The notes: generated from the sequence alone by a model not told the origin. Positions 21,539 to 63,655 are shown, counted from the stretch's first letter. The stretch: 64,000 bases of DNA from Alphaproteobacteria bacterium (GCA_046758065.1 JBHHZM010000001.1:7822-71821), one strand, 5' to 3'. Numbers and translations are program-made.

Positions 21539-21614
<76 letters not shown>

Positions 21615-25138: not shown

Positions 25139-25151
25139 TCCTTGTCGGGGC

Positions 25152-36873: not shown

Positions 36874-38823
36874 TCAGCCGGCTTTCCGCAGCGTCTGCTC
36901 GCGATACTCGGGCGCGTAGGGCAGCCGGGTGATCGCCGCGGCTTCGGGCGTCAGCGCGACGAGGTCGTCGCGGTTGAGCCGGGTCACGTCGTCGTAGCCC
37001 AGCGCCCGGGTCAGCGCGGCGATCTGCCAGCGTACGCCCTCGAGGAAACGGTGGATGTGGCGCGCCTCGATCTGCGGCTTGTAGCGCTTCTCGTGTTCGG
37101 GATCCTGGGTCGCGATGCCGGTGACGCACTGGCCGACGTGACACTGCATGCAGGCGATGCAGCCGCCGGCGATGATCGTCGAGGTGCCGAACGCCACCGC
37201 GTCGGCGCCGAGGCAGAGCGCCTTGACGGCGTCGACGCCGTCGCGCAGCCCGCCCATGAGGACGATTTCGATCTTGTCGCGGCAGCCGATCTCGTCGAGC
37301 GCGTCGAGCGCCTCGATGATCGCCGCGATGGTGGGAATGCCGACGTATTCCATGACCTCGGCGCCGCCGGCCCCGGTCGAGCCCTGCATGCCGTCGAGCT
37401 CGACGAAATCGAAGCCGTCCTTGACCGCGATCTTGATGTCGTCGCGAATCCGCCCCGCCCCGAGCTTGACGCTCACCGGCAGCCGGTAGCCCGTCGCCTC
37501 GCGGAACTCCTCGACCTTGATGACCAGATCGTCGGCGCCGAGGATGTCGGGGTGGCGCGACGGCGAGCGCAGGTCGATCCCGGCCGGAATGCCGCGGATG
37601 GCGGCGAGCTCCTCGGTCACCTTCTTGGCCATGAGCTGGCCGCCGAAGCCGGGCTTGGCGCCCTGGCTGATGTAGATTTCGAGCCCGTCGGCGCGATTCA
37701 TGTCGTGGATGTTCCAGCCCAGCCGGCCGCCGAGGCACTGGAAGACGAGCTGTTTGGCGGCGTCGCGCTGGGCGTCGCTCATGCCGCCTTCGCCGGTGTT
37801 CTCCGCGATCCCGGCGAGGCTCGACGCGATGCCGATGGCCTGTTTGGTCGAGCGGCTGAGCGCGCCGTAGCTCATCGGCGCGATCATCACCGGCATCGAG
37901 AGATCGAGCGGCTTGGCGCCGTTCTTGCCGCCGACCAGGGTGTGCATCCGGACCTGCGAGACCGGGTCGGCCGCCGCGCCGGCGTGCGAGACGTCCCTGC
38001 GGAAGGCGAGGTCCGAGAGATGCGGCAACTCGCGCGCGCCGCCGTAGCCGCGGACGCGATAGCGGCCGGTCTGCGACTTGATGTGGATGTCTTCCTGAAC
38101 CTTGGCGTTCCAGTAATCCGACGCGCCCGAGAAGGCGAAGAACGGCATGCTGCGGACCTGATGTTCGACGGTGCCGTATCGCAGCTTCTTGCCGGCGTTG
38201 ACGAGTTTTTGGAAGCGGCCCTTGAAGGCGATGCCATAGCGCTCGAGGAATTCCCTGATGCTCTCGATCTCCTCGGCGGCGATGTCGGTCAGCATGGCGT
38301 CGGAGCCGAGCTCGCGCAGGTTGCCGCCGACGAAAATCTCGCCGCCGGTCATGTCCTCGCCGACCCGCTCGCCGGAATCGCCGAGGATGATGATGCGCCC
38401 GCCGTACATCATGTAGCCGGCCATGAAATTGGCGTTGCCGGCGCAGCACAGCGTTCCCGCCTTCATCACCTGACCGGCGCGCGAGCCGATGTTGCCGTGC
38501 ACCACGACCTCGGCGCCGCGGATGGCGACGCCGGCGATCGCGCCGGCGTTGCCGCCGACCACCACCGAGCCGCGGTACATGTTGTCGGCGAGTCCCCAGC
38601 CGGCGTTGTTGTCGATGACGAAGCGCGGTCCGTCGGTCAGACCGGCGCAGAAATAGCCCGCCGAGCCGCGCACCCGCACGGTGATCGGATCGGCCAGTCC
38701 GACGCCGATATGGTGGCGCGCGTCCGGGTTGACGACCTCGACGTCCTCGCCCCGGGCGCCGCAGGCGCGGATGATCTCGTTGGCCTCGCGGACCGGAATT
38801 TTCGCCAGGTCTAGCGTGACCAT
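36874..38823 (-). CDS. Fused GlxC-GlxD homologue (glutamate synthase GXGXG domain plus FMN-binding glutamate-synthase domain)
   Basis: The N-terminal 230 aa carry GXGXG-domain repeats (GSAGYFCAG ... VVVGGNAG ... VVVHGNIG ... LCCAGNANF). They are followed in frame by the FMN/central domain (QGAKPGFGGQL ... ELDGMQGSTGAGG ... IVLMGGLRDGVD ... CIACMQCHVGQC). The start ATG at 38823 overlaps glxB by 13 nt. The Arg-rich 297-aa N-terminal extension in the track is rejected. Confidence 0.8.
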   Translation of the reverse strand: MVTLDLAKIPVREANEIIRACGARGEDVEVVNPDARHHIGVGLADPITVRVRGSAGYFCAGLTDGPRFVIDNNAGWGLADNMYRGSVVVGGNAGAIAGVAIRGAEVVVHGNIGSRAGQVMKAGTLCCAGNANFMAGYMMYGGRIIILGDSGERVGEDMTGGEIFVGGNLRELGSDAMLTDIAAEEIESIREFLERYGIAFKGRFQKLVNAGKKLRYGTVEHQVRSMPFFAFSGASDYWNAKVQEDIHIKSQTGRYRVRGYGGARELPHLSDLAFRRDVSHAGAAADPVSQVRMHTLVGGKNGAKPLDLSMPVMIAPMSYGALSRSTKQAIGIASSLAGIAENTGEGGMSDAQRDAAKQLVFQCLGGRLGWNIHDMNRADGLEIYISQGAKPGFGGQLMAKKVTEELAAIRGIPAGIDLRSPSRHPDILGADDLVIKVEEFREATGYRLPVSVKLGAGRIRDDIKIAVKDGFDFVELDGMQGSTGAGGAEVMEYVGIPTIAAIIEALDALDEIGCRDKIEIVLMGGLRDGVDAVKALCLGADAVAFGTSTIIAGGCIACMQCHVGQCVTGIATQDPEHEKRYKPQIEARHIHRFLEGVRWQIAALTRALGYDDVTRLNRDDLVALTPEAAAITRLPYAPEYREQTLRKAG

Positions 38824-39716
38824 GTGTCGTAGCTTCCCGGCGGCGGCTCGCGGGTGTCGAGCGCCTGGCCCGGGAACAGGCGGTTGAGCGAGACCTCTTC
38901 CGAGGCGATGGCGATGAGGTCGTCGTTCTCGTACATGATCATCGGCTTGGCGGCGAGACGGTCCTTGGCGTAGCCGATCTCGTCCTTGGTCGAAACCAGG
39001 AAGGAAAAGGTGCCGTCGAGGTCGTCGATCGACTGCCCGAGCGCCTGCCTGAGCGCCACGCCGTGGGCCAGCTTGTCGGCGAGGTAGACGGCGATGAGCT
39101 CGGAATCGTTGTCGGTGGTGAACTCGAAGCCGCGGCGCTCGAGGCGGCGGCGCATCTTCCAGTAGTTGGTGATCTGGCCGTTGTGGACGATGGCGACGTC
39201 GGCGAATCCGGTCGCCCAGAAGGGATGCGAGGCTTCGGGCTTGACCTCCGATTCGGTTGCCAGCCGGACGTGACCGAGCCCGTGGGTGCCGCGGTAGTCG
39301 CCGACATGATAACGCGCATCGACGTCGTGGGCGCTGCCGACGTCCTTGAGGATTTCGAGGCTTTCGCCGATCGACACCACCTTGGCGGCGTGCTCGACCG
39401 CGTAGGCGAAGCGCTGGAGATCGCCCGCGATGCGCACCACGGCGCGATAGACGTCGCCGACGTGTTCCTCCTCGACGATCTCGGCGTCGTGGTCGGCGAG
39501 CACCGCGCGGATGCGGCGCACCGTCGCGTCCGCTTCCCCGCCCCGGCCGACGAAAAAGCGCAGCATGAGCTCGCCGTCGCGTTCCTCGCCGTAAAGCGCG
39601 AAGCCGGTCGAATCGGGGCCGCGGTGCTGGCAGCCGTCGAGCATGTCGATGAGCGCCTTGCCGGTCGCGAGATTGCTTCCGGCGTTCTTGAACAGGATAC
39701 CGGCGATGCCGCACAT
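38811..39716 (-). CDS. glxB: Class II glutamine amidotransferase domain protein (GlxB / glutamate synthase domain-1 homologue)
   Basis: The N-terminal nucleophile Cys (MCGIAG) and a Ntn GATase_2 fold are present. It is the first gene of the glxB / glxCD / gltD-like operon on the minus strand. Confidence 0.85.
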   Translation of the reverse strand: MCGIAGILFKNAGSNLATGKALIDMLDGCQHRGPDSTGFALYGEERDGELMLRFFVGRGGEADATVRRIRAVLADHDAEIVEEEHVGDVYRAVVRIAGDLQRFAYAVEHAAKVVSIGESLEILKDVGSAHDVDARYHVGDYRGTHGLGHVRLATESEVKPEASHPFWATGFADVAIVHNGQITNYWKMRRRLERRGFEFTTDNDSELIAVYLADKLAHGVALRQALGQSIDDLDGTFSFLVSTKDEIGYAKDRLAAKPMIMYENDDLIAIASEEVSLNRLFPGQALDTREPPPGSYDTWSR

Positions 39717-39924
39717 GATGTCTTCCTTCCCGGCGCGCTTCGCGATGGCCGCAGATTAGCCCCGGCGCGGCAATCTTTCAATGTCTGAATAAATGTTTCA
39801 TGTCAGGAATATAACCGCCCCATCGCCCGCGCATGCACGCCGGCTCACAGCTGCGGCTAAGATCGATGAGCGATGATCCGGGTTGAGATCGGCGCGGGGG
39901 AACGTCCGGATGACGGTTGCCGGA

Positions 39925-41451
39925 TCAAAGTTTCCAGCGACGAGCGATTCTTTTCTTGCGGTCTTTAATAGCCTTTTCCACCTTTTTTTTATACGCGTCG
40001 ATGGTGCCAACCCGACGTTTCGCTTCGCGGGCCAACTGAGTGTCCAAGCGCAGGTCCACGGCCTCATCCCCGAGATCCCACTCCTTGTTATCGGGCTCGA
40101 TCCCGAGGTTCCATTCGATCGAAGCGGCGACCGAAAGGTAGGGCGCCTCCGTAAATTTCTCGAGGTGGCTGCTTTCAGCAGGGCCCTCCCCCTCAAGATT
40201 GGCCCATTCGCCAGAAAACGCAAAATGAGGCAATTTTATAGATAGATATTTTTTACATGAAGCGGGCGTTACGAATTCGTAATAATCACTCCATTTTTCT
40301 TCCGCTTTAAATAGCTTAGTAAACTCCTTTTCTTTAAAATTAAAAAAACCTAATGGATAATTGTCCAATTTCGTAATGCAGGAATCCCAATAAGTAATAG
40401 GATATGACATAGCACGAGCATTAACTCGCACCTCGAAGAAATTGCCATCCTTTAACTGCCCTCTAAAAATGAGCGCATGGCATATTTGAAAGGCAGCCCT
40501 GGGTGGCTCACTCTCCCCAACCGGAACGATGGTGAGCCAGATTTCGCGGACTCGCCGGGCTGTCACGTCTTTCGCCTCTATCACGCCGTCCGGAAGGTTG
40601 CGAGGATTACGATCGTAACGGTCGAACGGGGGATGTGTGCCTTTGAGAATCACGGTGGCATCTTCGACAATGAACCGCGCTGATGCCAAGACGTCGCCCA
40701 TCACCTGATAGATCAGGATGCCCGGCACCCAGCAAAGGTCGTCTAACCCAGAATAGGATTGATCATGGATATAATCAAATTCACCGTAACGACTATCTCC
40801 GGGATCAATTCCTATAATTGTTCCTTCTTTATCGAATAGAACACTGTTGTTCATTATGAACGAAAAATATTCATCCAGAGAATATTTTTTCGCAACCCAA
40901 TCGCACATGCCGCGCAACATGTCGCTGATGGTATGGCACCATTCCGCTTCGCTGCTTTGGATACTCTTATCCGCGGACAGATAATCCGTACCTTCAAAGA
41001 GTCGGAGAAGAAATGCATCTTCTTGCTTGTCAAGCGCCTTGGCCGCCTCTTGCGCAATTTTAATATAACCACGCGTACTCTGGGTAAGTTTTCTCCTTCT
41101 TTCTTTTTTCTTTTCTTCCGGAAGATCAGAGTCGAGCGCATATTGTGGCAGACGCTTGGTCGAGTCTTCCGGTTTGCCGTATCCGGCGGCATGTAAAATC
41201 TCCGATTTTCGGATGCCGCCTCGCTCGACTTGTTCAAGGATGGCCCAGAGATTCTCGGCGACAACCCCTCTCTCTCGGGGTTTGTTCATTCGGGGACGTT
41301 GTTCAAGGGCTGCCTTCAGGCTCTGACGGCGCTGGTCCTGATATGCGGCGTGTTGCTTTTCTTCTTCCTCGCGCCGTTTAGCCCTTTTTGGGCGTTCTTC
41401 CGGCGTGGACGAACCATGACGCGAGGAAAAGTCGATAACGTTGTCGGTCAT
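39925..41451 (-). CDS. Hypothetical protein (508 aa) of unknown function in the low-GC islet
   Basis: The N-terminal 60 aa are a charged K/R/E-rich stretch (PEERPKRAKRREEEEKQ). A globular region follows that I cannot assign to any family. The AT-rich codon usage is foreign to the host. The ATG at 41451 overlaps the upstream gene's stop (ATGA). Confidence 0.6.
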   Translation of the reverse strand: MTDNVIDFSSRHGSSTPEERPKRAKRREEEEKQHAAYQDQRRQSLKAALEQRPRMNKPRERGVVAENLWAILEQVERGGIRKSEILHAAGYGKPEDSTKRLPQYALDSDLPEEKKKERRRKLTQSTRGYIKIAQEAAKALDKQEDAFLLRLFEGTDYLSADKSIQSSEAEWCHTISDMLRGMCDWVAKKYSLDEYFSFIMNNSVLFDKEGTIIGIDPGDSRYGEFDYIHDQSYSGLDDLCWVPGILIYQVMGDVLASARFIVEDATVILKGTHPPFDRYDRNPRNLPDGVIEAKDVTARRVREIWLTIVPVGESEPPRAAFQICHALIFRGQLKDGNFFEVRVNARAMSYPITYWDSCITKLDNYPLGFFNFKEKEFTKLFKAEEKWSDYYEFVTPASCKKYLSIKLPHFAFSGEWANLEGEGPAESSHLEKFTEAPYLSVAASIEWNLGIEPDNKEWDLGDEAVDLRLDTQLAREAKRRVGTIDAYKKKVEKAIKDRKKRIARRWKL

Positions 41452-41819
41452 TGCCAGAGCCTCCGATGCCTTTGCCGCCAGCGATTCAACCGGCCGGGGC
41501 TGTGCCGCGGACGACGGCGTCGCGCCCGTTGGCCATGGACATGCAAGACCGTGACGATATGGCCGGTCTCTTCGCAGCGAATCACCACGAGGTTTGCGGC
41601 CCGCTCGACCAGACCGGGCGCATAGCCATCCGCCATAAGGGATGCGGTCTTCCGGCGGCTGATCTGCATCGAAATGCATCCGCGCCCCGCATTCAGCTCG
41701 ATGTCGCCGTGTTCGTCGATCAATTGTACCGCCTCGGACGGGATTCCGCGCTGTTGAAGCCGCCTGAGCGCGTGCCGCGTCATATGCGAGTGAGCGTTGA
41801 AGTATTCCATGTCCTGCAT
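41448..41819 (-). CDS. DUF4258-like small protein (toxin-like family), first gene of the islet operon
   Basis: MEYFNAHSHMTRHALRRLQQRGIPSEAVQLI ... GHIVTVLHV fits the DUF4258 pattern (F..HA..Rm.eRgI ... iITV) as I recall it. Confidence 0.55.
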   Translation of the reverse strand: MQDMEYFNAHSHMTRHALRRLQQRGIPSEAVQLIDEHGDIELNAGRGCISMQISRRKTASLMADGYAPGLVERAANLVVIRCEETGHIVTVLHVHGQRARRRRPRHSPGRLNRWRQRHRRLWQ

Positions 41820-42182
41820 CCCTCTCGTTGTCATGGCGGGATTGTCCTACACTCCAATCAACGGCGCATTCCAAAACTGGAAATTATAGAGGAATTTTAT
41901 TAGGAAGAAAATTTAGAATTCGACGGTATATCACGAGAAGATATTAGGTATATATCTGGCGCTTCGTATGGAACCGCTAAGCGCGACGGTTCGTAGACGG
42001 GCATCTCGCCGCTCGAACCGACCGGGATTACGGACATCTTGATTTTTGTGACCGTTGGCCGGTGCGGCGGGCATTCGGGCCAGCCGCCGTCATGCTGTCG
42101 AAGATCATGGGTTTGAGGTGTATATTTTCGTGGTTGCTCTCTCAAACGTTGCGGGGTCTCGGAAATGCGGCGACACGATACG

Positions 42183-42685
42183 ATGACGGTGGGGAACGCC
42201 GCCGAGGCTTTGGCCGTCCGTCTCCTGAAGGAGCACGGCTTCGACGTCGTGAACCTGAACGAGCGCCGGCGGAACTATCCCGTGTTCGACTTGCTCGCGC
42301 GCAAGCAGGGGCGCGACATCAGGATTTCGGTCAAATGCGCGCGGGCCAAGCGCGAACTGCGACTCGGTAAGCCGCAAACCCTTGAGAAAATGCCCGACGA
42401 GGGTGTCGTGATGGCGTCCTGCCCGTCGCCAAGGGCGAAGAGATCGACCTCGACGGCGGTCGTTATGAGCTATGGATCATCCCCGGCAACGTCGCGCGCG
42501 ACGAGGGCCTGAAAATGCATCGGCCTTATGCCGCGGCGCGCCCGGGCAGCGCCAATCATTCAGTGATGGTCAAGGACAAGGTGGACCGGAGCCCGCATAC
42601 GCGCTCGGGAGCGGTGTTCAGGAGTTGGCGCGACCGTTTCCAGGATGCGTGGCAGGTTTTGGAGCCCGGATACCAGCACGCATGA
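42183..42685 (+). pseudogene. Frameshifted PD-(D/E)xK nuclease-like (Mrr-cat/YraN-like) gene remnant
   Basis: Frame A reads MTVGNAAEALAVRLLKEHGFDVV ... VFDLLARKQGRDIRISVKCA up to about 42413. The sequence continues in the -1 frame (VLPVAKGEEIDLDGGRYELWIIPGN ...) to a TGA at 42683-42685. Confidence 0.4.
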
Positions 42686-42891
42686 TTCCAGCCGACTCGC
42701 GCGTTCCGTTCATGAGGATCGTTCGGCGGGTTTGAACGCCCCATCGCCCGGTGCTTGCGTATCCCTCATCGCCGCCGGTTGATCCAGGTCAAGTCGGGCG
42801 GGGGTGGTTGGCGTCACACTCCAGTTCGTGGGAGTCCGCGTCGTCATGCGGGGTTCCGCGCCGCGAGGCGCTCGAAAACGGGGACCGCGCC

Positions 42892-44523
42892 ATGCAGCTC
42901 GCCCAGGCCCTGCTCGCCGCGCTGAAGGACCACGGCGCGCGGCAGGTGTTCGGCATTCCCGGCGACTTCGCGCTGGCCTTCTTCAAGGTGATCGAGGAGA
43001 GCGGCGTGCTGCCGCTTTACACCCTGTCGCACGAGCCCGGCGTCGGCTTCGCGGCCGACGCGGCGGGACGCGCCGGCTGCACGCTGGGCGTCGCCGCGGT
43101 GACCTACGGCGCCGGGGCGCTCAACCTGGTCAACGCGGTGGCCGGGGCCTGCGCCGAGCGCTCGCCGGTGGTGGTGATCTCGGGCGCGCCGGGGACGGCC
43201 GAGCGCGCCGCTGGCCTCGCGCTCCACCACCAGGCCAAGACGCTGGATTCGCAGTTCCGCGTGTTCCGCGAGATCACCTGCGACCAGGCCCGTCTCGACG
43301 ATCCCGAGCGCGCGCCGGCGGCGATCGCCCGGGTCCTGCGCAGCGCGCACGAGCAGTCGATGCCGGTCTATCTCGAACTGCCGCGCGACAAGGTGACGGC
43401 GCGCTGCGCGGCGGTCGAAAAGGCGCCCCCGAGCCCGGTGGCACCCGAAGCGCTCGCCGAATGCGCCGGGGAAATCCTGGCGCGCCTCGAAGCGGCGCGC
43501 GCGCCGGTGCTGATGGCCGGGGTCGAGATTCGCCGCTACGGCATCGAAGACAAGGTGGCCGATCTCGCCCGCCGTCTCGGCCTGCCGGTGGTCACCAGCT
43601 TCATGGGCCGTGGCCTGCTCGCCGATTCGAACGCGCCGCCGCTCGGTACCTACCTCGGCGTGGCGGGCGACCCCGAAATCACCGAGCTGGTCGAAAACTC
43701 GGACGGTCTGTTGCTGTTGGGGGTGATCCTGTGCGACACCAACTTCGGGGTTTCTCACCATCAGATCGACCTGCGCGCCGCCATCCAGGCGCTCGGGCGC
43801 CGGGTGCGCGCCGGTTATCACGTCTACCCAGACATTCCGCTCGACGCGCTGGTCGACGCGCTGCTCGACCGTGCGCCGAAGGGGGCGGAGAGCGCGCCCT
43901 CGGCTGCGGCGGCGACCGGGTATCCGACCGGGCTGGTTCGCGACGACGCCCCGATCACGCCGACCGACATCGCGCGCGCGGTCAACGACATGATGCGCGT
44001 CCGGGGCGCGATGCCGATTTCCTGCGACGTCGGCGACTGCCTGTTCACGGCGATGGATATCGAACACACGCGCCTCGCCGCGCCGGGCTATTACGCCGGC
44101 ATGGGTTTCGGCGTGCCGGGCGGTCTCGGCATTCAGGCGGCGCTCGACGAGCGGCCGCTGATCCTGGTCGGCGACGGCGCTTTCCAGATGACCGGCTGGG
44201 AGCTCGGCAATTGCCGACGTTACGGCTGGGATCCGATCGTCCTGCTGTTCAACAACGCGAGTTGGGAAATGCTGCGCGTCTTCCAGCCCGAGTCGCGATT
44301 CAACGATCTCGACGACTGGCGCTTCGCCGCCATGGCCGGCGCCCTCGGCGGCGTCGGCGAACGGGTGACGACGCGAGCGGCACTCGGCGCCGCGCTCGAC
44401 CGCGCGGCGGCGACGCGGGGCCGCTTCCGTCTCATCGAGATCATGCTGGAGCGCGGCGTCTGGTCCAACACGCTCGCGCGCTTCGTCGCCGGTCTCAAGC
44501 GGGGCCGACCACGCGAGGCGTGA
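42892..44523 (+). CDS. Thiamine-pyrophosphate-dependent alpha-keto-acid decarboxylase (indolepyruvate / phenylpyruvate decarboxylase family)
   Basis: N-terminal PYR-domain, central domain and C-terminal PP domain are all present (GDGAFQMTGWELGNCRRYGWDPIVLLFNNASWEML). Confidence 0.85.
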   Translation: MQLAQALLAALKDHGARQVFGIPGDFALAFFKVIEESGVLPLYTLSHEPGVGFAADAAGRAGCTLGVAAVTYGAGALNLVNAVAGACAERSPVVVISGAPGTAERAAGLALHHQAKTLDSQFRVFREITCDQARLDDPERAPAAIARVLRSAHEQSMPVYLELPRDKVTARCAAVEKAPPSPVAPEALAECAGEILARLEAARAPVLMAGVEIRRYGIEDKVADLARRLGLPVVTSFMGRGLLADSNAPPLGTYLGVAGDPEITELVENSDGLLLLGVILCDTNFGVSHHQIDLRAAIQALGRRVRAGYHVYPDIPLDALVDALLDRAPKGAESAPSAAAATGYPTGLVRDDAPITPTDIARAVNDMMRVRGAMPISCDVGDCLFTAMDIEHTRLAAPGYYAGMGFGVPGGLGIQAALDERPLILVGDGAFQMTGWELGNCRRYGWDPIVLLFNNASWEMLRVFQPESRFNDLDDWRFAAMAGALGGVGERVTTRAALGAALDRAAATRGRFRLIEIMLERGVWSNTLARFVAGLKRGRPREA

Positions 44524-44551
44524 CGACGCCGCCTGTCCGGCGACGGATGGA

Positions 44552-45259
44552 TCAGCCGCGGATGCCGATCGTCGGGGCGATCCCGACGACGCGCCGCGAT
44601 TCGCTGACGCCCACGAGGTCCGACAGGTAGCGGAACGCGCTTTCGATCGCCCCGGCCACGGTGCCGTCCCTGGTCCGGTCGTCTCCCAGCAGCGTCTCGT
44701 CGATTACCAGCGTGCCGGCGTCTCTCATCACCAGGACGCCGCCGCCGAGGAAGGCGACGACGGCCCTGGCCGCGGCGTCGGTGGTGACGCGGTCGCCGAG
44801 ACGAATGGCCATTCCCGCGCGGACGTTTTTCGTCTTGCCGCCCGGCGCCAGGACGCGGACGCTGCCCGTAACCGCAGTCAGCGTGGCGACGGCGGCGGCG
44901 TCGGTCGGAGCGGCGATCGCCGCGCTCTCCGCCGCCGAGTTGGCGCTCGCGCCCCCCAGGCTCGGCGACAGCATGCCGCCGACGGCAAGCGCCGCGGCCG
45001 CCATGAGCATGCGGCTTTGATGCGCCAGCGAGTGCTGGAGATCGTGTGGGCGGACCAGCCCCCGGCGCAGCAGCACCTCGCCGATCTTCTCGCCGGTCCC
45101 GCGTTGCTCGGAAAGCGCCGCGGCAAGCTGTGCCGAGGTAATCAACCCGCGGTCGACGAGGATCTCGCCGATCCTCAAGTGGTCCTCTCGATAGTTCCGG
45201 GCGATGGGCCGCCACCGCCGTTCACCCTTTCCGCCGGCGCGGTCGGAAGCGGCGCCCAT
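44552..45259 (-). CDS. MshEN-domain (c-di-GMP-binding) protein with a TM helix and a C-terminal FecR-like domain
   Basis: Two tandem 24-aa MshEN motifs match RLGxxLxxxGxIxxxxLxxALxxQ (LRIGEILVDRGLITSAQLAAALSEQ and KIGEVLLRRGLVRPHDLQHSLAHQ). A TM segment follows (MLMAAAALAVGGMLSP), then a FecR-like beta region (GSVRVLAPGG ... AGMAIRLGDRV). The start is uncertain, with 45409 as an alternative. Confidence 0.6.
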   Translation of the reverse strand: MGAASDRAGGKGERRWRPIARNYREDHLRIGEILVDRGLITSAQLAAALSEQRGTGEKIGEVLLRRGLVRPHDLQHSLAHQSRMLMAAAALAVGGMLSPSLGGASANSAAESAAIAAPTDAAAVATLTAVTGSVRVLAPGGKTKNVRAGMAIRLGDRVTTDAAARAVVAFLGGGVLVMRDAGTLVIDETLLGDDRTRDGTVAGAIESAFRYLSDLVGVSESRRVVGIAPTIGIRG

Positions 45260-45429
45260 GCCTGCGCCGCGCGGAGCCAACCACCGTCCGAGCCCGCGGC
45301 GCCGGCGGTGCTCGCCCGTCAGCGCGAGCGCAACGGGTCCGCGCTGCGGCGACCGGCGGGCCGGTCGTGTCGCTTCGCTTCCATGACGTCGACGATCGCT
45401 GAGCCACATGTCGCCAGAATAGACTCGAG

Positions 45430-45587
45430 CGGTTAACCGATGACTAACGAATCCGGATACTTGGGTAACCTTAATAAAACCACCACATAATGTTTGGTTC
45501 TTATTTACAGCGCGGGCCGGGTGGCAATGATGATTCATGCGTCCCGACCGGAGCGAACGGTTAACGACGTTGTCCCGCGGTTAACCG
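45430..45587. promoter_or_regulatory. Cluster of GGTTAAC(C) palindromes in the divergent intergenic region
   Basis: CGGTTAACCG occurs at 45430-45439 and 45578-45587, CGGTTAACG at 45558-45566, and variants GGTAACC at about 45464 and GGTTAAT at about 45696. The first site reads TTAA-N7-CTAAC, one mismatch from a CtrA box. Confidence 0.3.
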
Positions 45588-45855
45588 TGCGCGGGCGGCG
45601 GCGCGACGGGCGCCACGGCGCCGCAGGCCGCAGCCGGCCGCAGGGATTAGGAAAAAATTCACGAAAAATCGCCCGAGGTGTGACGGCCGTCACTGGTTAA
45701 TCACGTTAGTCATATATGATAGCCGGCGCCGCATGCCGTACGACGTTCGTGACGGTCCGTCGCCGCTTCCGGGAGGGCGTCCCAAAATCTCGGATACATA
45801 ATGCATGTCTGCGGCTTGCGAAGACAAAAAATTCAAGAAAGACAATAGAATTTAG

Positions 45856-47244
45856 ATGATCAGAGTCTTCAAACATTATATACCTACACCGTTCTTGGTT
45901 CTCTGTGTAATAGAGAACCTTATACTCGTCGTTTCAATATATTCCGCCATATATATCCGATACTTCAATGTCTCCTACGCGCCCGGGGCGATAGCGGAAT
46001 ATCTTCCGGAGGCGTTGACTTTCGCCGGCGCGATTCTGCTCACGATGTTCGCGGTCGGCCTGTACCGGCGCGAACACAGCCAGGATCTGCGCGCCGTCTT
46101 CTTTCGCCTGATCGCCAGCTTCGGTCTTGCCTTGATCGCGCTGTCGCTCGTTTTCTACGTCTTTCCCGACCTCAAGATCTGGCGCAGCGCCTTCGCCGTC
46201 GCCGTGATCCTGGCGCTTGTCGGTATCCTCGCGGCGCGCTTCGTCTTTCTCAAGCTGTGTGACCGCGCGGCGTTCAAACGGCGGATTCTGGTCCTGGGGG
46301 CGGGCGCGCGCGCGGCACACATCGAACGCCTGGAAACCGATGGCGAGGCGCAGAGTTTTACCCCGATAGGATTTCTGGCCACGCCTGACGCCGAGACGTG
46401 CGTGAACCCGTCGCGCGTTCTTTCCGGTGTCAACTCGCTCGCCGCCTTCGCCCGCGATCATGGTGTCGAGGAGATCGTGGTCGCCGTCGAGGATCGGCGC
46501 GCAGGCTTGCCGGTCGAGGCGCTTCTCGAATGCAAGCTCGAAGGAATATCGGTCACCGATTATCCCGGTTTCTGCGAGCGCGAGACCGGTCAGGTGGACC
46601 TCGATTCCCTGCAGCCGAGTTGGCTCATCTTCTCGGACGGATTCGTCACCGGACCGGTGCGCAACGTGCTGAAGCGCGGCTTCGACATCGTCGCAAGCCT
46701 CGTGCTCCTGGTCTTTACCTTTCCCCTGATCGCAACGGCGGCACTGGCGGTTCGTCTGGAGAGCCACGGCCCGATTTTCTACCGCCAGGAGCGCATTGGG
46801 CTCGCCGGGCGCCCGTTCATGCTGCTCAAGTTCCGAAGCATGAAGGTCGATGCCGAAGACGACGGCGTGCCGCGTTGGGCGGCGGCGAAAGACAGCCGCG
46901 TCACCCGCGTCGGGGCTTTCATTCGCAAGACGCGCATCGACGAGCTGCCGCAAATCTTCAACGTGCTCAAAGGCGAAATGAGCTTCGTCGGACCGCGGCC
47001 CGAGCGCCATTATTTCGTCGATCAACTGAGCGCCCAAGTGCCGTATTATTCCGAACGCCACCGGGTCAAACCCGGCATCACGGGCTGGGCACAACTCAAT
47101 TACCCTTATGGCGCCTCGATCGACGACGCCAAGGCGAAGCTGCAATACGATCTGTATTATGTTAAGAATTATAGTGCATTCCTCGACCTGAGCATATTGA
47201 TGCAGACGATTCGCGTCGTCTTGTGGCCAGAGGGAGTTCGCTGA
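45856..47244 (+). CDS. Exopolysaccharide polyprenyl-phosphate glycosyl-1-phosphate transferase (EpsB-family, PEP-CTERM-system associated)
   Basis: An N-terminal TM bundle precedes the C-terminal bacterial sugar transferase domain ([13 protein letters not shown] ... [22 protein letters not shown]). The 5' region is AT-rich. It lies directly upstream of prsK. Confidence 0.85.
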
Positions 47245-47269
47245 CACGGCGAGCTGAAGAATTGCCGTA

Positions 47270-49375
47270 ATGGACGCCGGCTTCATCAGCCATTTGGCTG
47301 CCGCGGCCGCCTTTGCCGTTCTTACCCTTCTGCTGTTGGTCAGTTGGCGAGGACGGGGGGCGGGAACGCTGCTCATCGTCGCCAGCGTGACGACGATGGT
47401 CTGGGCTGCGCTGGCCGCCTATTTCGCCCTCGGCAACGTGGCGGAGACGGGCGGCCTGTTCTCGACGCCGGTGCGCGTGCTCGAGGTGCTGCGCAGTGCC
47501 GCCTGGATCGCGCTTCTGTGGGGCATTCTGACGATCAGCCTGCGGCGCGCCGGCGCGGCGCGCGTCCCGCGGGTCGGTCCCCTGATCACTGCGGGATTGT
47601 GTCTCGTTGTCCTCGCCCTCGATGTCTATCCCGATCTGGCGAGGATCCTGCGGTTGCCTTGCGAAGGTACCGCCTGCGCGGTGTTCGGCCGACTGGGCGT
47701 CGCCGTTATCGGCCTTGCCCTGGCGGAGAACCTTTACCGCAATACCGAATCCGAGCGTCGCTGGAGCATCAAGCACCTGTGTTTCGCCGTCGCCGGCATG
47801 TTCGTCTACGACATTTTTCTTTACGCCGACGCGATTCTCGTGCGGGCGCTCGATTACGAGCTCCTCGAGGTGCGCGGCATCACCAACGCGCTGATCGTTC
47901 CGCTGATCGCGGTATCGGCGGCGCGCAACCGCGAATGGCGGCTCGACATATTCGTCTCGCGGCGGGTCGTCTTTCACTCGGCGGCACTGATCGGCACCGG
48001 CGTCTACATGCTGCTGATGGCCGGTGTGGGCTATTACCTCAGAGAGTTCGGCGGCAGTTGGGGGGCGATGCTGCGCATGGCCTTCCTCTTCGGCGCCGCC
48101 ATCCTGCTGCCCATCATCCTGTCCTCCGGACGGCTTCGCTCGCGGCTCAAGGTTCTACTCACGAAGCACTTCTTCACGTACAAGTACGATTACCGCGAGG
48201 AGTGGCTGAATTTCATTCGTACGATTTCGTCGGCCACGCCGGGACGCAGCCTCCGCGACCAGACGATCCGCGCCATCGCCAACATCGTAGACAGCCCCGA
48301 CGGCGGTCTCTGGCTGCGCGGGGATGCCGATCGGTTCGATCTGACGACCACCTGGAACTTTGCCTGGCCGGCGGTGGAAGAACCGGCCGACGGCGCTTTC
48401 GCGCGGTTTCTCGAAGAGCGGCAATGGGTCGTGAATCTGAACGATTCCGCGCGGTCGGACAAGGCGCAGACGGGACCTCCGGTTCCCGAATGGTTGCGCG
48501 GGCTGAGTCGCGCCTGGCTCGTCCTTCCTCTGGTGCACGAGGAGCGGTTGTTCGGCTTTATCGTGCTCGGTCAGCCTCGCGCTCCCCGTCGGCTCAATTG
48601 GGAGGATTACGACCTGCTCAAGACCGTGGGCCGCCAGGCGGCGAGCTATCTGGCCCAAGAACAGGCGACGCGGGCACTCGCCGAGGCCCGCCAGTTCGAG
48701 GCGTTCAACCAGCGCTTCGCTTTCGTGCTGCACGATGTCAAGAATCTCGTGAGCCAGCTTTCGTTGATGGCGAAAAACGCGGCGAAGCACCGCGACAACC
48801 CGGCCTTTCAGGAAGACATGGTCCGGACAGTCGATGAATCGGTCGAGAAGATGAACCGTCTGTTGCAGCGACTCCACGCGGATTCGGCGAGCAGTCCCCG
48901 CTCTGTTGTCGAACTCGCCGGGCTGTTGCGCCGGATCGTCGACGAGCGCGCCGGCACGGCGCCCTCGGTCATCTTCGACGACGGCGGCGCGACCCTTGCC
49001 GTCGCCGTCGATGAAGATCGCCTCGCCGCGGTGGTCGAGCACCTGATCCAGAATGCCCTCGACGCCTCGCCCCCGGCCGCTCGGGTTCGGGTGCGCTTGT
49101 TTGCCAGCGGCGATGATGCGATCATCGAGGTCGAGGACAGTGGTGCCGGCATGGACGCCGAATTCATCCGCGAGGAACTCTTTCGGCCGTTCAAGACCAC
49201 CAAGGGGGCGGGGTATGGCATCGGCGCCTTCGAAAGCCGGGAGTTTGCGCGCCGCATGGGCGGTCGGCTCGATGTTTTCAGCGAGCCGGGCGAGGGGACG
49301 ACAATGCGATTGATCCTGCCTGTCGTAAAGGGTTCGCCCGAAACCACCGGCGATCGGCGAAAGGTGACGGCCTGA
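47270..49375 (+). CDS. prsK: PEP-CTERM system histidine kinase PrsK
   Basis: The 701-aa product has a multi-TM N-terminal region, a GAF-like domain, a HisKA H-box (FVLHDVKNLVSQL) and an HATPase_c domain. Its stop overlaps the prsR start (TGATG). Confidence 0.8.
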   Translation: MDAGFISHLAAAAAFAVLTLLLLVSWRGRGAGTLLIVASVTTMVWAALAAYFALGNVAETGGLFSTPVRVLEVLRSAAWIALLWGILTISLRRAGAARVPRVGPLITAGLCLVVLALDVYPDLARILRLPCEGTACAVFGRLGVAVIGLALAENLYRNTESERRWSIKHLCFAVAGMFVYDIFLYADAILVRALDYELLEVRGITNALIVPLIAVSAARNREWRLDIFVSRRVVFHSAALIGTGVYMLLMAGVGYYLREFGGSWGAMLRMAFLFGAAILLPIILSSGRLRSRLKVLLTKHFFTYKYDYREEWLNFIRTISSATPGRSLRDQTIRAIANIVDSPDGGLWLRGDADRFDLTTTWNFAWPAVEEPADGAFARFLEERQWVVNLNDSARSDKAQTGPPVPEWLRGLSRAWLVLPLVHEERLFGFIVLGQPRAPRRLNWEDYDLLKTVGRQAASYLAQEQATRALAEARQFEAFNQRFAFVLHDVKNLVSQLSLMAKNAAKHRDNPAFQEDMVRTVDESVEKMNRLLQRLHADSASSPRSVVELAGLLRRIVDERAGTAPSVIFDDGGATLAVAVDEDRLAAVVEHLIQNALDASPPAARVRVRLFASGDDAIIEVEDSGAGMDAEFIREELFRPFKTTKGAGYGIGAFESREFARRMGGRLDVFSEPGEGTTMRLILPVVKGSPETTGDRRKVTA

Positions 49376-50730
49376 TGGGTGCGCGGAATCGCAAACTGCT
49401 GATCGTTGAGGACGATTCGGGACTTCAGCGCCAATTGCGCTGGAGCTTCTCGGACTACGAGGTCTTCGTCGCCAAAGATCGGGACGGCGCTCTCGAATTG
49501 GTGAAAGATGAAAAACCGCCCGTGGTCACGCTCGACCTCGGCCTGCCGCCCGACGAGGACGGCACCTCGGAAGGCCTGGCGACGCTCGAGAATATTCTCG
49601 CACGGGCGCCGGACACCAAAGTCATCGTCGTCACCGGCAACGAGGATCGCGCCAACGCGGTAAAGGCCGTGGGTCTCGGCGCCTACGATTTCTACCAGAA
49701 GCCGATCGACGACGAGATGCTCGGCCTCATTATCCAGCGCGCCCATCAGCTTTACGAGCTTGAGGCGGACAACCAGCGGCTTACCGACGCTCGACGCGAA
49801 TCGACCTTGCGCGGGATCATCACGAGTTGTTCCGAGATGCTCAAGGTCTGCGGGACGATCGAAAAGATCGCGCCGGCCGACGTCAGCGTCCTGCTGGGCG
49901 GCGAGAGCGGCACCGGCAAAGAGCTTCTCGCGCGCGCGCTTCACGAACTGAGTGCGCGCCGGAAAGGTCCGCTCGTTACCATAAACTGTGCGGCGATTCC
50001 GGAGACCCTTCTCGAATCCGAACTCTTCGGGCACGAAAAGGGTGCTTTCACAGGCGCCGTCAAGCAGACCAAGGGCAAGATCGAGCTCGCCGACGGGGGC
50101 ACGCTGTTCCTCGACGAGATCGGCGACATTCCGGTCGCGCTACAGGTCAAGCTGTTGCGCTTCCTGCAGGAGCGGGTGATTGAACGGATTGGCGGGCGCA
50201 AGCAGATTCCCGTCGACGTGCGTATCGTCTGCGCCACCCACCAGGACCTTGACGCGCTTATCAAGGTGGGGCGGTTTCGCGATGACCTGTTCTACCGGAT
50301 CAGCGAAATCGTCATCAAGATCCCCCCGCTGCGCGACCGGGATAGCGATCCGATCGTCCTTGCTCGCAGTTTTCTGAACAAGTTCAACAAGGAGCTCGAT
50401 CGTTCCGTCCGCGGATTTACCGGCCCCGCGCTGGCGGCGATCACGAATTACCCCTGGCCCGGCAACGTGCGTGAGCTCGAGAACCGCATGAAGCGGGCCG
50501 TGATCATGGCCGAAGGCGTTCGCATTACCGCGGGCGACCTCGAACTCGAGGCGCCCGAAACCGAACCGATGCCGCTCGCCCTCAAGGACGTACGCGAGAT
50601 GGCCGAGCGCGACGCGGTGCAGCGAGCGCTCGCCGAAGTCGACGGCAACGTCTCGCACGCGGCAAAGCTCCTTGGTGTCAGCCGGCCGACGCTCTACGAT
50701 CTGATGCGGTATTACAATTTCAAATGGTGA
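49375..50730 (+). CDS. prsR: PEP-CTERM-box response regulator PrsR (sigma-54-dependent, NtrC family)
   Basis: It has a REC domain, a sigma-54 AAA+ domain (GESGTGKELLARALH, GAFTGA) and a C-terminal Fis-type HTH. Confidence 0.85.
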   Translation: MGARNRKLLIVEDDSGLQRQLRWSFSDYEVFVAKDRDGALELVKDEKPPVVTLDLGLPPDEDGTSEGLATLENILARAPDTKVIVVTGNEDRANAVKAVGLGAYDFYQKPIDDEMLGLIIQRAHQLYELEADNQRLTDARRESTLRGIITSCSEMLKVCGTIEKIAPADVSVLLGGESGTGKELLARALHELSARRKGPLVTINCAAIPETLLESELFGHEKGAFTGAVKQTKGKIELADGGTLFLDEIGDIPVALQVKLLRFLQERVIERIGGRKQIPVDVRIVCATHQDLDALIKVGRFRDDLFYRISEIVIKIPPLRDRDSDPIVLARSFLNKFNKELDRSVRGFTGPALAAITNYPWPGNVRELENRMKRAVIMAEGVRITAGDLELEAPETEPMPLALKDVREMAERDAVQRALAEVDGNVSHAAKLLGVSRPTLYDLMRYYNFKW

Positions 50731-50827
50731 ATCCGACAGCCGCAGGCGCTCGCCGAATCTGGCCTGCGCCCCGCACGGTCACGGGGAATCGGGTGGATCT
50801 TCGGCGTTACAGTGAAGGAGGCCCAGC

Positions 50828-53650
50828 GTGTTGAATTCCAGTCAACGGAGCCGCTTGCCGGTTCGTCAAACGATCGGTCGCCTTGTCGCCGCGTCGGTTC
50901 TTGCACTGACGCTCGCTGGTGTCCCCGCCCTTGCGGCCGCCGACCGCGAACAGTCCAACCGGCACTACGAGGACGCGCAAGCCTACGTCAAGCAGGGCGA
51001 CGTGAATGCCGCGGTGATCGAGCTCAAGAACGCACTGCAGAGCGACCCCGACAACGTTGCCGCGCGCTATCTGCTCGGTGAGATCTATGTGCGGACGGGA
51101 AACGGCGCGTCCGCCGAAAAGGAGCTCAAAAAGGCGCGCGAGCGCGGCCTCGACGAGGCGCGCGTGGCCGTTGCCTTGGCGCGGGCTTACCTGCTGCAGG
51201 GCAAGTTCAACGCCGTTCTCGAAGAGATTCCACGCGGCGAACGCGGCAACGATATCGAAGCGGCGATCGCCCTTGAACGCGGCCAGGCGTACTTCGGCCT
51301 CAACCGGGTCGACGAGGCCCTCGCCGCGTTCGAAGAGGCGCACCGTCTCAAGCCGGAGGATGCGGGGGTCAACATGGCGCTGGCGCGCGTCTTCGTTAGC
51401 AAGGGAGACATCGCGGCGGCCGAGGAACAGGCCGACACGGCGTTGTCGCTCGCACCCGAAATCGCCGATGTCTGGGTTCTCAAGGGCGAGCTTCGGCGTC
51501 TCCAACACGACCTCGAAGCCGCCGTCTCGCACTTCGACAAAGCGATCGAGATCCAGGCGAACAACGTCCCGGCGCGACTCGGCCGTGCGGCGGCGCTGAT
51601 CGACCTCAATCGTGACGACGCGGCGTTGGCCGACATCGACGTGGTGGCGAAGGCGGTTCCGAACCACCCGCTCGCATCCTACCTCGCGGCGCTCCTCGCG
51701 GCGAAGCGGAAGGACTATGGCACGGCCCAGGACCGCCTGCTGGAAGTTTTCCGCGTCCTGAACGATCACCTGCCGAGCATCTTTCTGTCCGGCGCCGTCA
51801 GTTACGCCCAGAACCAGCTCGAGCAGGCGGAGCACCAACTGAGACGTTACCTCAAGGCCGTCCCCCGCCACGCGGCGGCAAGAAAACTCCTCGGCGCCAC
51901 GCTGATCCGCAAGAACCAACCGGCCGGCGCGATCGAGGCGTTGCTGCCGGTGATCGAGGACGCGCCCGACGACGCCCAGGCGCTGGCCCTCCTGGGCAGC
52001 GCGTATATGCAGGACCGGCAGTACGCCAAGAGCACGGAGTATTTCGAGAAGGCGGCGGCGGCGTCACCGGAAGCCGCGTCGGTCCGCACGCAACTCGCGC
52101 TGAGCCGCATGGCGACCGGAGAATCCCAGCTTGCGCTTCAGGATCTCGAATCGGCCTTCGAACTCGACAGCGATCAAGGCCAGGCGGGAATTCTCCTCGC
52201 GCTCGCCCAACTGCGAAGCGGCAACTACGACGAAGCGATTAAGACTGCCGACGAGCTCGGCAAAAGACTCCCGGACAATCCGCTGCCCTTCAACCTCAAA
52301 GGCGCTGCTTTGATCGGCAAGGACATGTTCGCCGAAGCGCGGCAGAGCTACGAACAGGCGCTCAAACTGCAGCCGGATTACTTTCCTGCGACGATGAACC
52401 TGGCGCAACTCGATATGCGCGAGGGTCGGCCCGACGAGGCGAAGGCGCTCTACGAGTCGATCCTGGAAGTTGACGCCGGCCATGCGGGCGCGCTGATCGC
52501 CCTCGCGCGGATGGCGATGAGCGAGAAGCGTCCCGATGACGCCGTCGCGTTGCTCGACCGGGCGCGCGCGGCCAATCCGAAAAGCCTGCAGGCGCGGCTG
52601 TACCTGGTAAACCTCCACATCCAGCGGCGCGAGGCCGGAAAGGCGCTGACCGTGGCCCGTGAGCTCGAACAGATCGGCCCGCAGAGTCCGCAGGCCCTCG
52701 ACGCTCTCGCCAGGGCGCAGATCGCCAACGGCGAGGCGGAGAGCGCCGTCGCCACCTACCGCCGCATCATCGCGTTCAATAACGCTTCAGCCGGGGTCTA
52801 CCAGCGTTTAGCAGCGGCACAAGTGGTGGCGGGTGACATGGCGGGAGCCCGGGAATCGCTGGCGACGGCGCGCTCGGTTGACCCCAAGTTCCTGCCCGCA
52901 CGGATTGCTTCCGTCGAACTCGAGCTGCGCGACGATAAGCCGGATGCCGCGCTCGCGCTGGCGAAGGAACTGCGCGACGAGCAGCCCGACTCCCCCGTCG
53001 GCGACATGCTCGTGGGCGATGCGCTGATGCGCACGGAGCGGTTTGCCGAGGCCGCCGAGGCTTATGCCCGGGCGAGCGGGAAAAAGAACAGCGCCGCGCT
53101 CGCCGTACGCCGGTACAACGCACTCGTCAAAAGTGGCGATACGGACCGCGCGCTGGCGATTCTCAAGGACTGGGTCGACGCCAATCCCGACAATCACGCC
53201 TCGCGGCTGGTTCTTGCCGGCGCCTATCTGAAGGCGCGACGCTATCCCGAGGCAATCGAGAATCACGAACAGCTCCTCAAGATCGATCCGAAAAACCCGG
53301 TGATCCTTAACAACCTCGCATGGATCTATCTTGAGACCGGCGACCCGCGGGCTCTCGACTACGCCGAGAAGGCTCATGAAAACGCACCCCAGTCGGTTTC
53401 GATCACCGATACGCTGGGCTGGATTCTGACACGCCAGGGGCAGGGCGAACGAGGACTCGAACTGCTCAAGAAAGCGAGCGCTCAGGCGCCTGCGGAATCC
53501 GAAATCCGCTTCCATTTGGCGGTGGCGCTGAACAATCTCGGCCGGCGCGACGAGGCGCGCCGTGAGCTCGAAAGCGTGGTCAAGTCGGGAAAACACTTCG
53601 CCGCCATGGACGAAGCGCGCTCCCTCCTGCGCGAACTGTCGCAGCAATGA
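50828..53650 (+). CDS. prsT: PEP-CTERM system TPR-repeat lipoprotein PrsT
   Basis: The 940-aa product has a signal peptide and is almost entirely tandem TPR repeats. It lies immediately after prsK-prsR. Confidence 0.8.
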   Translation: MLNSSQRSRLPVRQTIGRLVAASVLALTLAGVPALAAADREQSNRHYEDAQAYVKQGDVNAAVIELKNALQSDPDNVAARYLLGEIYVRTGNGASAEKELKKARERGLDEARVAVALARAYLLQGKFNAVLEEIPRGERGNDIEAAIALERGQAYFGLNRVDEALAAFEEAHRLKPEDAGVNMALARVFVSKGDIAAAEEQADTALSLAPEIADVWVLKGELRRLQHDLEAAVSHFDKAIEIQANNVPARLGRAAALIDLNRDDAALADIDVVAKAVPNHPLASYLAALLAAKRKDYGTAQDRLLEVFRVLNDHLPSIFLSGAVSYAQNQLEQAEHQLRRYLKAVPRHAAARKLLGATLIRKNQPAGAIEALLPVIEDAPDDAQALALLGSAYMQDRQYAKSTEYFEKAAAASPEAASVRTQLALSRMATGESQLALQDLESAFELDSDQGQAGILLALAQLRSGNYDEAIKTADELGKRLPDNPLPFNLKGAALIGKDMFAEARQSYEQALKLQPDYFPATMNLAQLDMREGRPDEAKALYESILEVDAGHAGALIALARMAMSEKRPDDAVALLDRARAANPKSLQARLYLVNLHIQRREAGKALTVARELEQIGPQSPQALDALARAQIANGEAESAVATYRRIIAFNNASAGVYQRLAAAQVVAGDMAGARESLATARSVDPKFLPARIASVELELRDDKPDAALALAKELRDEQPDSPVGDMLVGDALMRTERFAEAAEAYARASGKKNSAALAVRRYNALVKSGDTDRALAILKDWVDANPDNHASRLVLAGAYLKARRYPEAIENHEQLLKIDPKNPVILNNLAWIYLETGDPRALDYAEKAHENAPQSVSITDTLGWILTRQGQGERGLELLKKASAQAPAESEIRFHLAVALNNLGRRDEARRELESVVKSGKHFAAMDEARSLLRELSQQ

Positions 53651-53683
53651 ACGCAGCGCCGGCGCGGACGGGCGGCTCCGCGT

Positions 53684-63618: not shown

Positions 63619-63655
63619 GGCGCCGGACGCCCGCCGGCGGATTCGGTCTTGCGGA

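Follow-up and report, generated by a model that had tools for sequence, protein, structure and literature searches.

A horizontally acquired block beside glxB in an alphaproteobacterial genome carries a conserved two-gene operon, a candidate toxin-first toxin-antitoxin or abortive-infection module

A low-GC block in the genome of an alphaproteobacterium (Alphaproteobacteria bacterium, GCA_046758065.1) lies between glxB and a gene for an indolepyruvate/phenylpyruvate decarboxylase and carries three genes: a small DUF4258-like gene, a gene for a 508-aa protein and a nuclease-like gene. The whole stretch of DNA analyzed is 64,000 nt long (JBHHZM010000001.1:7822-71821) and is called the window here; positions are counted from its first nucleotide and the features of the block are collected in Table 1. 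It is well supported that the block is horizontally acquired DNA because its composition is extreme, synteny breaks at glxB and the module formed by the first two genes is found in unrelated contexts. Our favored reading, held with somewhat more confidence than doubt, is that the core of this acquired block is a two-gene type II toxin-antitoxin (TA) or abortive-infection module with the toxin gene first, and that a 14-bp direct repeat around the block may be an insertion scar. As a compositional islet the block is ordinary. More useful is the cargo, a compact candidate defense module whose operon is recognized by no family library among Pfam, NCBIfam, PHROGs and PADLOC.

The stop codon of the small gene overlaps the start codon of the 508-aa gene by 4 nt (ATGA), as read from the sequence. 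A small homolog lies directly upstream of the large gene in 12 of the 12 loci examined (the window, L083 to L089, L091, and L094 to L096), the two genes being joined by 4-nt overlaps (1 nt in L091) or separated by gaps of 11 to 58 nt. The small genes of L095 and L096 had been missed by the gene finder and were recovered by tblastn. On the Microvirga terrae plasmid pR24_2, a DUF4258 protein gene overlaps by 4 nt the gene of a 545-aa hypothetical protein, whose N-terminal 175 aa are 38% identical to the 508-aa protein (E = 1e-26). The conservation of the pair across loci led to the conclusion that a portable operon of ~2.0 to 2.4 kb forms the core of the islet. A preliminary description of this DNA had spoken of orphan cargo, a label which does not fit a conserved operon.

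The upstream DNA of nine loci was aligned on a conserved His codon. It contains two to four direct TTCC(N)AA boxes at intervals of ~12 nt and, after them, an inverted TTYGGGAATGC box; the array is located 45 to 75 nt before the start codon. The window has three TTCC boxes 12 nt apart (41903-41906, 41891-41894 and 41879-41882), a TATAAT hexamer at 41883-41888 and the inverted TTTTGGAATGCG box at 41863-41878. In leave-one-out weight-matrix scans the true sites rank 1 to 51 among ~3,000 to 128,000 positions per locus, and the best or second-best TTCC-box match falls within the module upstream region in six of seven loci. The clearest operator array is found at L095:6480-6590 with four TTCCCGAA boxes at 12-nt spacing and then GGGAATG; similar boxes are present upstream of the L094 module. 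Because these non-coding boxes are conserved while the proteins are only 30 to 40% identical, the element is likely to function as the promoter and operator of the two-gene operon. The boxes would fit autoregulation by a putative DNA-binding partner. General promoter and terminator scans added nothing.

Judged by its homologs, the small protein, which is basic, is related to DUF4258: it shows 36% identity (E = 1e-8, tblastn) to the pR24_2 protein named "DUF4258 domain-containing protein" by PGAP. Residues H21, R25, Q28, R29, G30, D44, G50, G52, T95 and R105 are invariant in nine aligned homologs, and most of the small proteins carry an Arg-rich tail. The invariant His and Arg residues fit the "H, [KR]" signature of Ntox49, a predicted BECR-fold RNase toxin (PMC3482391), and DUF4258 overlaps Ntox49. 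DUF4258 has been classed in the RelE/ParE superfamily (PMC11980606) and in the colicin-like BECR branch (bioRxiv 10.64898/2026.08.28.747851); its activity is still uncharacterized. The small protein is described here as a putative BECR-fold RNase toxin. The source metagenome-assembled genome, with locus tags ACE5H8_00200 and ACE5H8_00205, annotates it with 120 aa. Two other interpretations of this gene were considered. That the protein is an integrase fragment was rejected, the Phage_integrase match being at chance level (E = 0.051 over 34 residues). A 150-aa open reading frame (ORF) on the plus strand (41451-41903), antisense to the DUF4258-like gene, was called on Logan contigs; the minus strand is favored by the homologs, by the ATGA coupling and by G+C content at third codon positions (GC3, 0.74 versus 0.62), and the plus-strand call is probably spurious.

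The 508-aa gene had been taken for an orphan, and indeed, when the 508-aa protein, the small protein or a 60-sequence family alignment was searched against a word index of 5.8 billion proteins, nothing but the query came back. An exhaustive HMMER run against 1.84 billion cluster representatives gave 224 proteins with E ≤ 1e-3, 122 of them with E ≤ 1e-10; the orphan status is thereby refuted, and at least 224 clusters at 50% identity make up the family. Orphan calls by word-indexed search are unreliable for proteins with charged, low-complexity N-termini, and the present case, an apparent orphan with hundreds of relatives by exhaustive HMMER, is a methodological caution. The HMMER relatives are mostly 450 to 650 aa in length and match mainly at residues 1 to 210; the partner proteins have 439 to 673 aa (median 528). 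Twenty family clusters that were looked up are tiny and either unnamed or called "hypothetical protein". The conserved N-terminal region of ~200 aa contains the core motif VAxNLWxIL...AAGxG..DSTKRLPxYAL. In the 60-member alignment the mean pairwise identity is 36% over residues 55 to 160 and 18% in the C-terminal part, which hardly aligns but keeps a few conserved positions. No aligned family member matches a Pfam family and the 508-aa protein has no match in NCBIfam, PHROGs or PADLOC.

A single-sequence AlphaFold model of the large protein was unusable (predicted local distance difference test score, pLDDT, 38). AlphaFold2 with the 60-sequence alignment gave a model with pLDDT 77.7 and a predicted template modeling score (pTM) of 0.76. 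In order from the N-terminus, the model has a long helix, a helical domain at residues ~58 to 200 (pLDDT mostly 84 to 98 with a dip near residues 161 to 170), a middle part rich in beta strands with long hairpins, an alpha/beta region of lower confidence and a long C-terminal helix. As modeled, the N-terminal core appears XRE-like, with a fold resembling that of an XRE-type helix-turn-helix (HTH). The C-terminal ~300 aa are poorly conserved and beta-rich with the long helix at the end, and this domain has no recognizable fold neighbor in the structure searches. Foldseek comparison of the model with PDB and BFVD found no significant match, and PDB sequence-profile searches with the small and large proteins returned noise only.

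In the mechanism that we propose, the small RNase-like protein would be the toxin and the large protein a DNA-binding neutralizer that holds it inactive. The large protein would bind the upstream TTCC-box array and so autoregulate the operon, and its variable C-terminal domain may serve as a sensor or as a lability determinant, such that a perturbation, for example by a phage, would free the RNase. If this is correct, the module would represent a new partner architecture for DUF4258/Ntox49 toxins, in which a DNA-binding domain is fused to a large variable domain. Several observations weigh against the TA or abortive-infection assignment. The Pfam DUF4258 model (PF14076) aligns with the small protein at 69 of its 71 positions, yet with a score under the cut-off (E = 0.002, 18.8 versus 25 bits), and it is matched by only three of nine relatives, all sub-threshold. 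DUF4258 modules have been tabulated with the antitoxin gene first (PMC11980606), whereas the toxin-like gene comes first in the window. The partner of ~500 aa is far bigger than classical antitoxins (~70 to 150 aa), neither protein matches a model in PADLOC-DB 2.0, and defense neighbors are found at some loci only. It is in our estimate unlikely, although far from negligible, that the pair is a conserved operon of another kind, for example one with the large protein as an effector or ligand-binding transcription factor and the small protein as its cofactor or regulator. The weak DUF4258 similarity, the very large partner with no antitoxin family match, a C-terminal domain that resembles no recognizable fold and the ordinary metabolic neighbors at many loci would all suit such an operon; the invariant His/Arg motif typical of Ntox49/DUF4258 would not, nor would the tight translational coupling, sporadic spread, foreign composition and repeated proximity to defense or TA genes, which are hallmarks of conflict modules. 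We continue to favor the toxin-first TA or abortive-infection module. The fuller proposal, in which the pair is an undescribed and fairly widespread TA or abortive-infection system with a C-terminal phage sensor, carried on a bare ~2-kb cassette that can insert without a recombinase of its own and leaves a 14-bp duplication, is doubtful.

The module was found in 11 other genomic contexts which are mutually unrelated. At L089/L090, type I Zorya genes (ZorB/C/D) are located upstream and two integrases and an excisionase-like gene downstream. The Microvirga plasmid locus (L083) carries a retron RT_VI, a ThsB-like TIR protein and an Abi protein. In L088 a Gp49/HTH toxin-antitoxin pair and then rpsD adjoin the module, in L084 an MNT-type PDC-S09 candidate defense gene is found, and L096 has resolvase and ParB-methylase genes of a mobile element. 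The neighbors at L087, L091, L094 and L095 are ordinary chromosomal genes. The family member of L095, P0019, is indexed in 38 blocks of the collection, and the 16 places read (16 contigs) share a dUTPase-ABC (ATP-binding cassette) transporter neighborhood. A metagenome scan with a narrow family alignment gave three loci, and a scan of viral contigs gave nothing.

The G+C content falls from ~0.69 in the backbone to 0.33-0.55 over ~39.8 to 42.1 kb, and the block is the most atypical stretch of the window: the distance in tetranucleotide frequency (TNF) is maximal here (robust z up to 9.5 at 40251-41250). GC3 is 0.51 in the 508-aa gene and 0.74 in the small gene; in glxB and the decarboxylase gene it is 0.89 to 0.90. 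The preliminary description had placed the fall in GC exactly between the two repeat copies. The fall itself is confirmed, but not its exact limits, since the anomaly covers only ~39.8 to 42.1 kb and the nuclease-like gene beyond it (GC 0.64) is near the host value. The anomaly ends near 42.05 to 42.15 kb, inside the AT-rich divergent spacer, and the TNF z-score is ~0.3 at 42001-43000. Logan contigs of the same organism are interrupted between 42011 and 42113 (in two samples they end at 42011 and one contig begins at 42113), which coincides with the right-hand limit of the compositional anomaly. The window arrangement is the only one seen in the contigs from SRR29324609 and SRR29324611. Comparable low-GC stretches are found elsewhere: in L084 the module forms a ~2.3-kb stretch with GC of 0.37 to 0.64 in a background of 0.72 to 0.78 and no recombinase; in L094 the large gene has 0.60 to 0.67 and the upstream spacer ~0.50 against 0.70 to 0.77, with a host-like small gene (0.73 to 0.77); and the L088 module is also lower in GC, with a weaker signal. 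At these three loci the stretch of lower GC is ~2 to 2.5 kb long and has ordinary chromosomal genes on both sides but no integrase in the vicinity.

A search for glxB in a species-level genome collection returned 80 loci, the best with 83% protein identity and different neighbors. In the window glxB opens a glxBCD/gltD-like operon with GXGXG, Glu_synthase and Pyr_redox genes downstream; the related loci share the glxB-operon genes only, and conserved synteny stops at the 5' end of glxB. Neither the module nor the nuclease gene nor the decarboxylase gene adjoins glxB in the 80 loci of other species (all ≤83% protein identity), and no other record was returned when glxB, the decarboxylase and the 120-aa protein were each looked up as exact proteins. 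It is very improbable that the block is native, vertically inherited DNA of odd composition. The near-host composition of the nuclease-like gene is the one point that speaks for this; with the high TNF z-score, the low GC3 relative to host genes (0.51 versus 0.9), the scatter of the module over unrelated contexts and on a plasmid, and its absence from the related glxB loci, native origin is effectively refuted.

How the block was inserted is a separate question. The sequence CGCCCCATCGCCCG occurs as exactly two exact plus-strand copies in the window, at the places first described for it. The left copy lies inside the 208-bp spacer that separates the 508-aa gene, with its stop at 39925, from the start of glxB at 39716, and the right copy inside the 206-bp spacer between the stop of the nuclease-like gene (42685) and the decarboxylase start (42892). 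Similarity between the two copies stops at 14 nt, with no extension on reading the sequence. We propose that the module would spread as a bare cassette, without a recombinase of its own, into variable spots and defense islands. The three-gene block is bracketed by the 14-bp repeat, and this repeat may be the scar of a single insertion, left either by target duplication or by crossing over at 14 bp of microhomology; this is the weakest step of the proposal. Two estimates of chance were made. When 1-kb flanks are compared, 6.6% of equivalent placements share an exact repeat of at least 14 nt (p = 0.066). Any three-gene insertion must end within 39717-39924 and 42686-42891; under a null restricted to spacers of that size, a repeat of at least 14 nt is found in 0.04% of placements at the same spacing and in 0.2% at random spacing. 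Being improbable under the spacer null but not under the 1-kb null, the repeat is suggestive and not conclusive.

Other results count against the scar. Fourteen-mers of this kind are frequent across the window, where exact direct 14-mers at 0.5- to 5-kb spacing occupy 33 positions (~20 distinct repeats versus 11.8 expected from a second-order Markov model). The right copy is located ~600 bp past the compositional edge. No terminal inverted repeats join 39830-39930 with 42640-42736 (the best inverted pair in the block flanks is 21 nt at 71%), and no flanking repeat beyond chance was found at six other module loci, five by the 1-kb null and L094 by its bounding spacers. An empty glxB-decarboxylase site was not found among the 80 glxB loci, the exact-protein look-ups or the Logan contigs. 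The claim of a target-site-duplicated cargo insertion thus holds for the foreign insertion, by composition, synteny break and scattered module, while the duplication is neither shown nor refuted.

Much of this evidence can also be read in another way, to which we give a little less than an even chance. The 14-bp repeat could be a GC-rich coincidence or a shared host regulatory motif of the glxB and decarboxylase promoters, and the block would have two separate histories: a recent two-gene cassette with its right edge at 42.05-42.15 kb, and an older, largely ameliorated or resident nuclease-like gene. The abundance of direct 14-mer pairs and the 1-kb null are in line with this reading, as is the lack of a flanking repeat at the other loci. 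Both the anomaly and the Logan breaks stop near 42.0 to 42.1 kb, the nuclease-like gene has a GC3 of 0.77 to 0.84, close to host, and it is unlinked to the module elsewhere. The 14-mer is itself an internal repeat, CGCCC-CAT-CGCCC (CGCCC-N3-CGCCC), and both copies lie 100 to 142 nt upstream of a start codon. Against this reading stand the spacer null, the absence of a further exact copy in the window and the fact that the sequence is non-palindromic and has opposite orientations relative to glxB and the decarboxylase gene. We regard it as about equally likely that the three genes came together from a mosaic donor, with the 14-mers as marks, and that the cassette edge lies near 42.05-42.15 kb, with the 14-mers a coincidence.

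A few further repeats were noted near the block. A third copy of the 14-mer with one mismatch, CGGCCCATCGCCCG, is found on the minus strand at 45198-45211, within a gene (44552-45538) for a product with an MshE-like cyclic di-GMP-binding domain. A 20-nt inverted repeat with 75% complementarity (39748-39767/39838-39857) surrounds the left 14-mer as well as an AT-rich stretch that is the putative promoter region of glxB. A common "CGCCCC" repeat in the window and L084 was rejected as chance, since the L084 11-mer is at expectation and, relative to the module, points the opposite way. Downstream of the L084 module (L084:7538-7638) a 44-nt repeat occurs twice in tandem, with an incomplete third copy; each contains AAAACGGTGACAGTG, which is inverted relative to a 21-nt upstream sequence (L084:5382-5402, 86% complementary). 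These inverted copies may represent either terminal inverted repeats or operator sites. Nothing like the AAAACGGTGACAGTG repeats is present in the window.

It is improbable that the block is a decayed classical mobile element, that is an integrative island, a transposon or a unit flanked by insertion sequences (IS), that has lost its integrase or transposase, with the 14-mers as attachment (att) or target-duplication sites. A direct repeat is present at both edges, gene decay is seen inside the block and the module occurs within integrase- or resolvase-bearing elements in other genomes, as one would expect of such an element. Yet the three-gene content without integrase or transposase, as first described, was borne out by ORF and HMM (hidden Markov model) family searches: none of the three block ORFs has a transposase match, and no recombinase remnant was found in any frame of the block. 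The block lacks terminal inverted repeats and a nearby tRNA or tmRNA target, the sole tRNA of the window being located at 21539-21614; Rfam has no matches in 39000-46500. Block DNA shows no similarity to plasmid records, relatives of the large protein are absent from phage records, and in L084 and L094 the module is a bare cassette of ~2 to 2.5 kb. A bare cassette, as proposed above, remains our preferred vehicle for the module.

The nuclease-like gene is probably a pseudogene. Three-frame translation shows one frameshift near 42386-42420, and Logan contig L093, assembled independently from the same sample, contains the ORF with this frameshift too. All HMM matches are sub-threshold and cover only the first ~60 residues (SMEK_N, E = 2e-4; PDDEXK_5, 0.016; YraN, 0.02 to 0.06), which gives a putative YraN/SMEK_N-like N-terminus; Mrr_cat is also weakly matched, again below threshold. 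Against PADLOC-DB 2.0 the fragment gave a single weak match (E = 0.0029), and the rebuilt nuclease has no match in plasmid records. No nuclease homolog lies beside the module at the other loci examined, and the pseudogene is outside the conserved module. The pseudogene ends at 42685 and does not adjoin the right repeat copy.

Table 1. Features of the acquired block and its flanking genes in the 64,000-nt window.
Feature	Position	Strand	Basis
glxB-type class II glutamine amidotransferase (left flank)	38811..39716	-	Pfam GATase_6/7
Left 14-mer copy, CGCCCCATCGCCCG	39816..39829	+	Exact match and sequence read
Large partner gene, 508 aa	39925..41451	-	ORF call
Small DUF4258-like gene, 128 aa	41448..41834	-	Weak Pfam DUF4258 match; homolog alignment; sequence read
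AT-rich divergent spacer, module to nuclease-like gene	41835..42164	.	GC profile, TNF profile, Logan contigs L081, L082 and L093
Upstream cis-element (likely promoter and operator)	41863..41910	-	Nine-locus alignment, leave-one-out weight matrices
PD-(D/E)xK nuclease-like gene, probable pseudogene	42165..42685	+	Three-frame translation; weak HMM matches
Right 14-mer copy, CGCCCCATCGCCCG	42737..42750	+	Exact match and sequence read
Indolepyruvate/phenylpyruvate decarboxylase, thiamine pyrophosphate enzyme (right flank)	42892..44523	+	TIGR03394 and Pfam TPP_enzyme N/M/C

The decarboxylase of the right flank matches TIGR03394 with 884 bits (cut-off 554.5) over residues 2 to 534, and its real start is the ATG at 42892. 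Farther to the right, the region 45300-54000 contains an AT-rich gap, where GC drops as low as 0.40 (45800-45999), and after it a cluster of lower GC (0.60 to 0.67), which begins with a Bac_transf sugar transferase gene (45856-47244) followed by a GAF histidine kinase gene (47258-49372). This region is possibly a second acquired region, a polysaccharide locus. Two more atypical stretches were observed at 25000-26500 and 62000-64000 (TNF z of 3.7 and 4.9, GC ~0.58 to 0.61); the first has an EAL-domain gene next to a response regulator and the second an ABC permease gene and unannotated ORFs.

Among known kinds of acquired DNA, the block resembles genomic islets and integrase-less defense-island cargo in being 2 to 3 kb of low-GC DNA that lies where synteny breaks, is flanked by housekeeping genes and holds conflict-type genes as well as a pseudogene. 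It differs from them in that its cassette is the same two-gene operon as in L084, L094 and, weakly, L088, and in the exact 14-bp bracketing repeat, seen in the window genome only. Target duplications of 14 to 15 bp are known for casposons and some IS families. With IS elements, miniature inverted-repeat transposable elements (MITEs) and casposons the block shares direct repeats at both edges; unlike them, it has no transposase, Cas1 or terminal inverted repeats, and the other module loci have no repeat. Like an integrase-mediated island it is atypical in composition and absent from the 80 distant glxB loci, but it has no tyrosine or serine recombinase gene and no tRNA/tmRNA att site.

As in type II TA modules, the two genes are adjacent, co-directional and tightly coupled, and they are paired at every locus examined. 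The closest parallels are the toxin-first RelE/ParE systems with XRE-HTH antitoxins (HigB-HigA, Gp49-HTH and MqsR-MqsA). Here too the gene of a small BECR-type toxin-like protein precedes a coupled gene with a predicted XRE-like domain, putative operator repeats lie upstream and the distribution is sporadic and horizontal; a Gp49/HTH pair even adjoins the L088 module. In contrast to the antitoxins of ~100 aa in these systems, the partner has 439 to 673 aa with a large, fast-diverging C-terminal domain, and it has no sequence match to the HTH_3, HigA or MqsA models. Canonical DUF4258 modules have the antitoxin first with HicB- or MqsA-type partners, and the order in the window is reversed. With DUF4258 (PF14076)/Ntox49 domains, which include TA toxins and CdiA-CT domains, the small protein shares the H-A-x-x-R-x-x-Q-R-G-I motif, the overall length and coverage of the full-length model; it differs in scoring below the gathering threshold and in its extra Arg-rich C-terminal tail. 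On these sequence features, the small protein looks like a member of a divergent sister subfamily of DUF4258/Ntox49.

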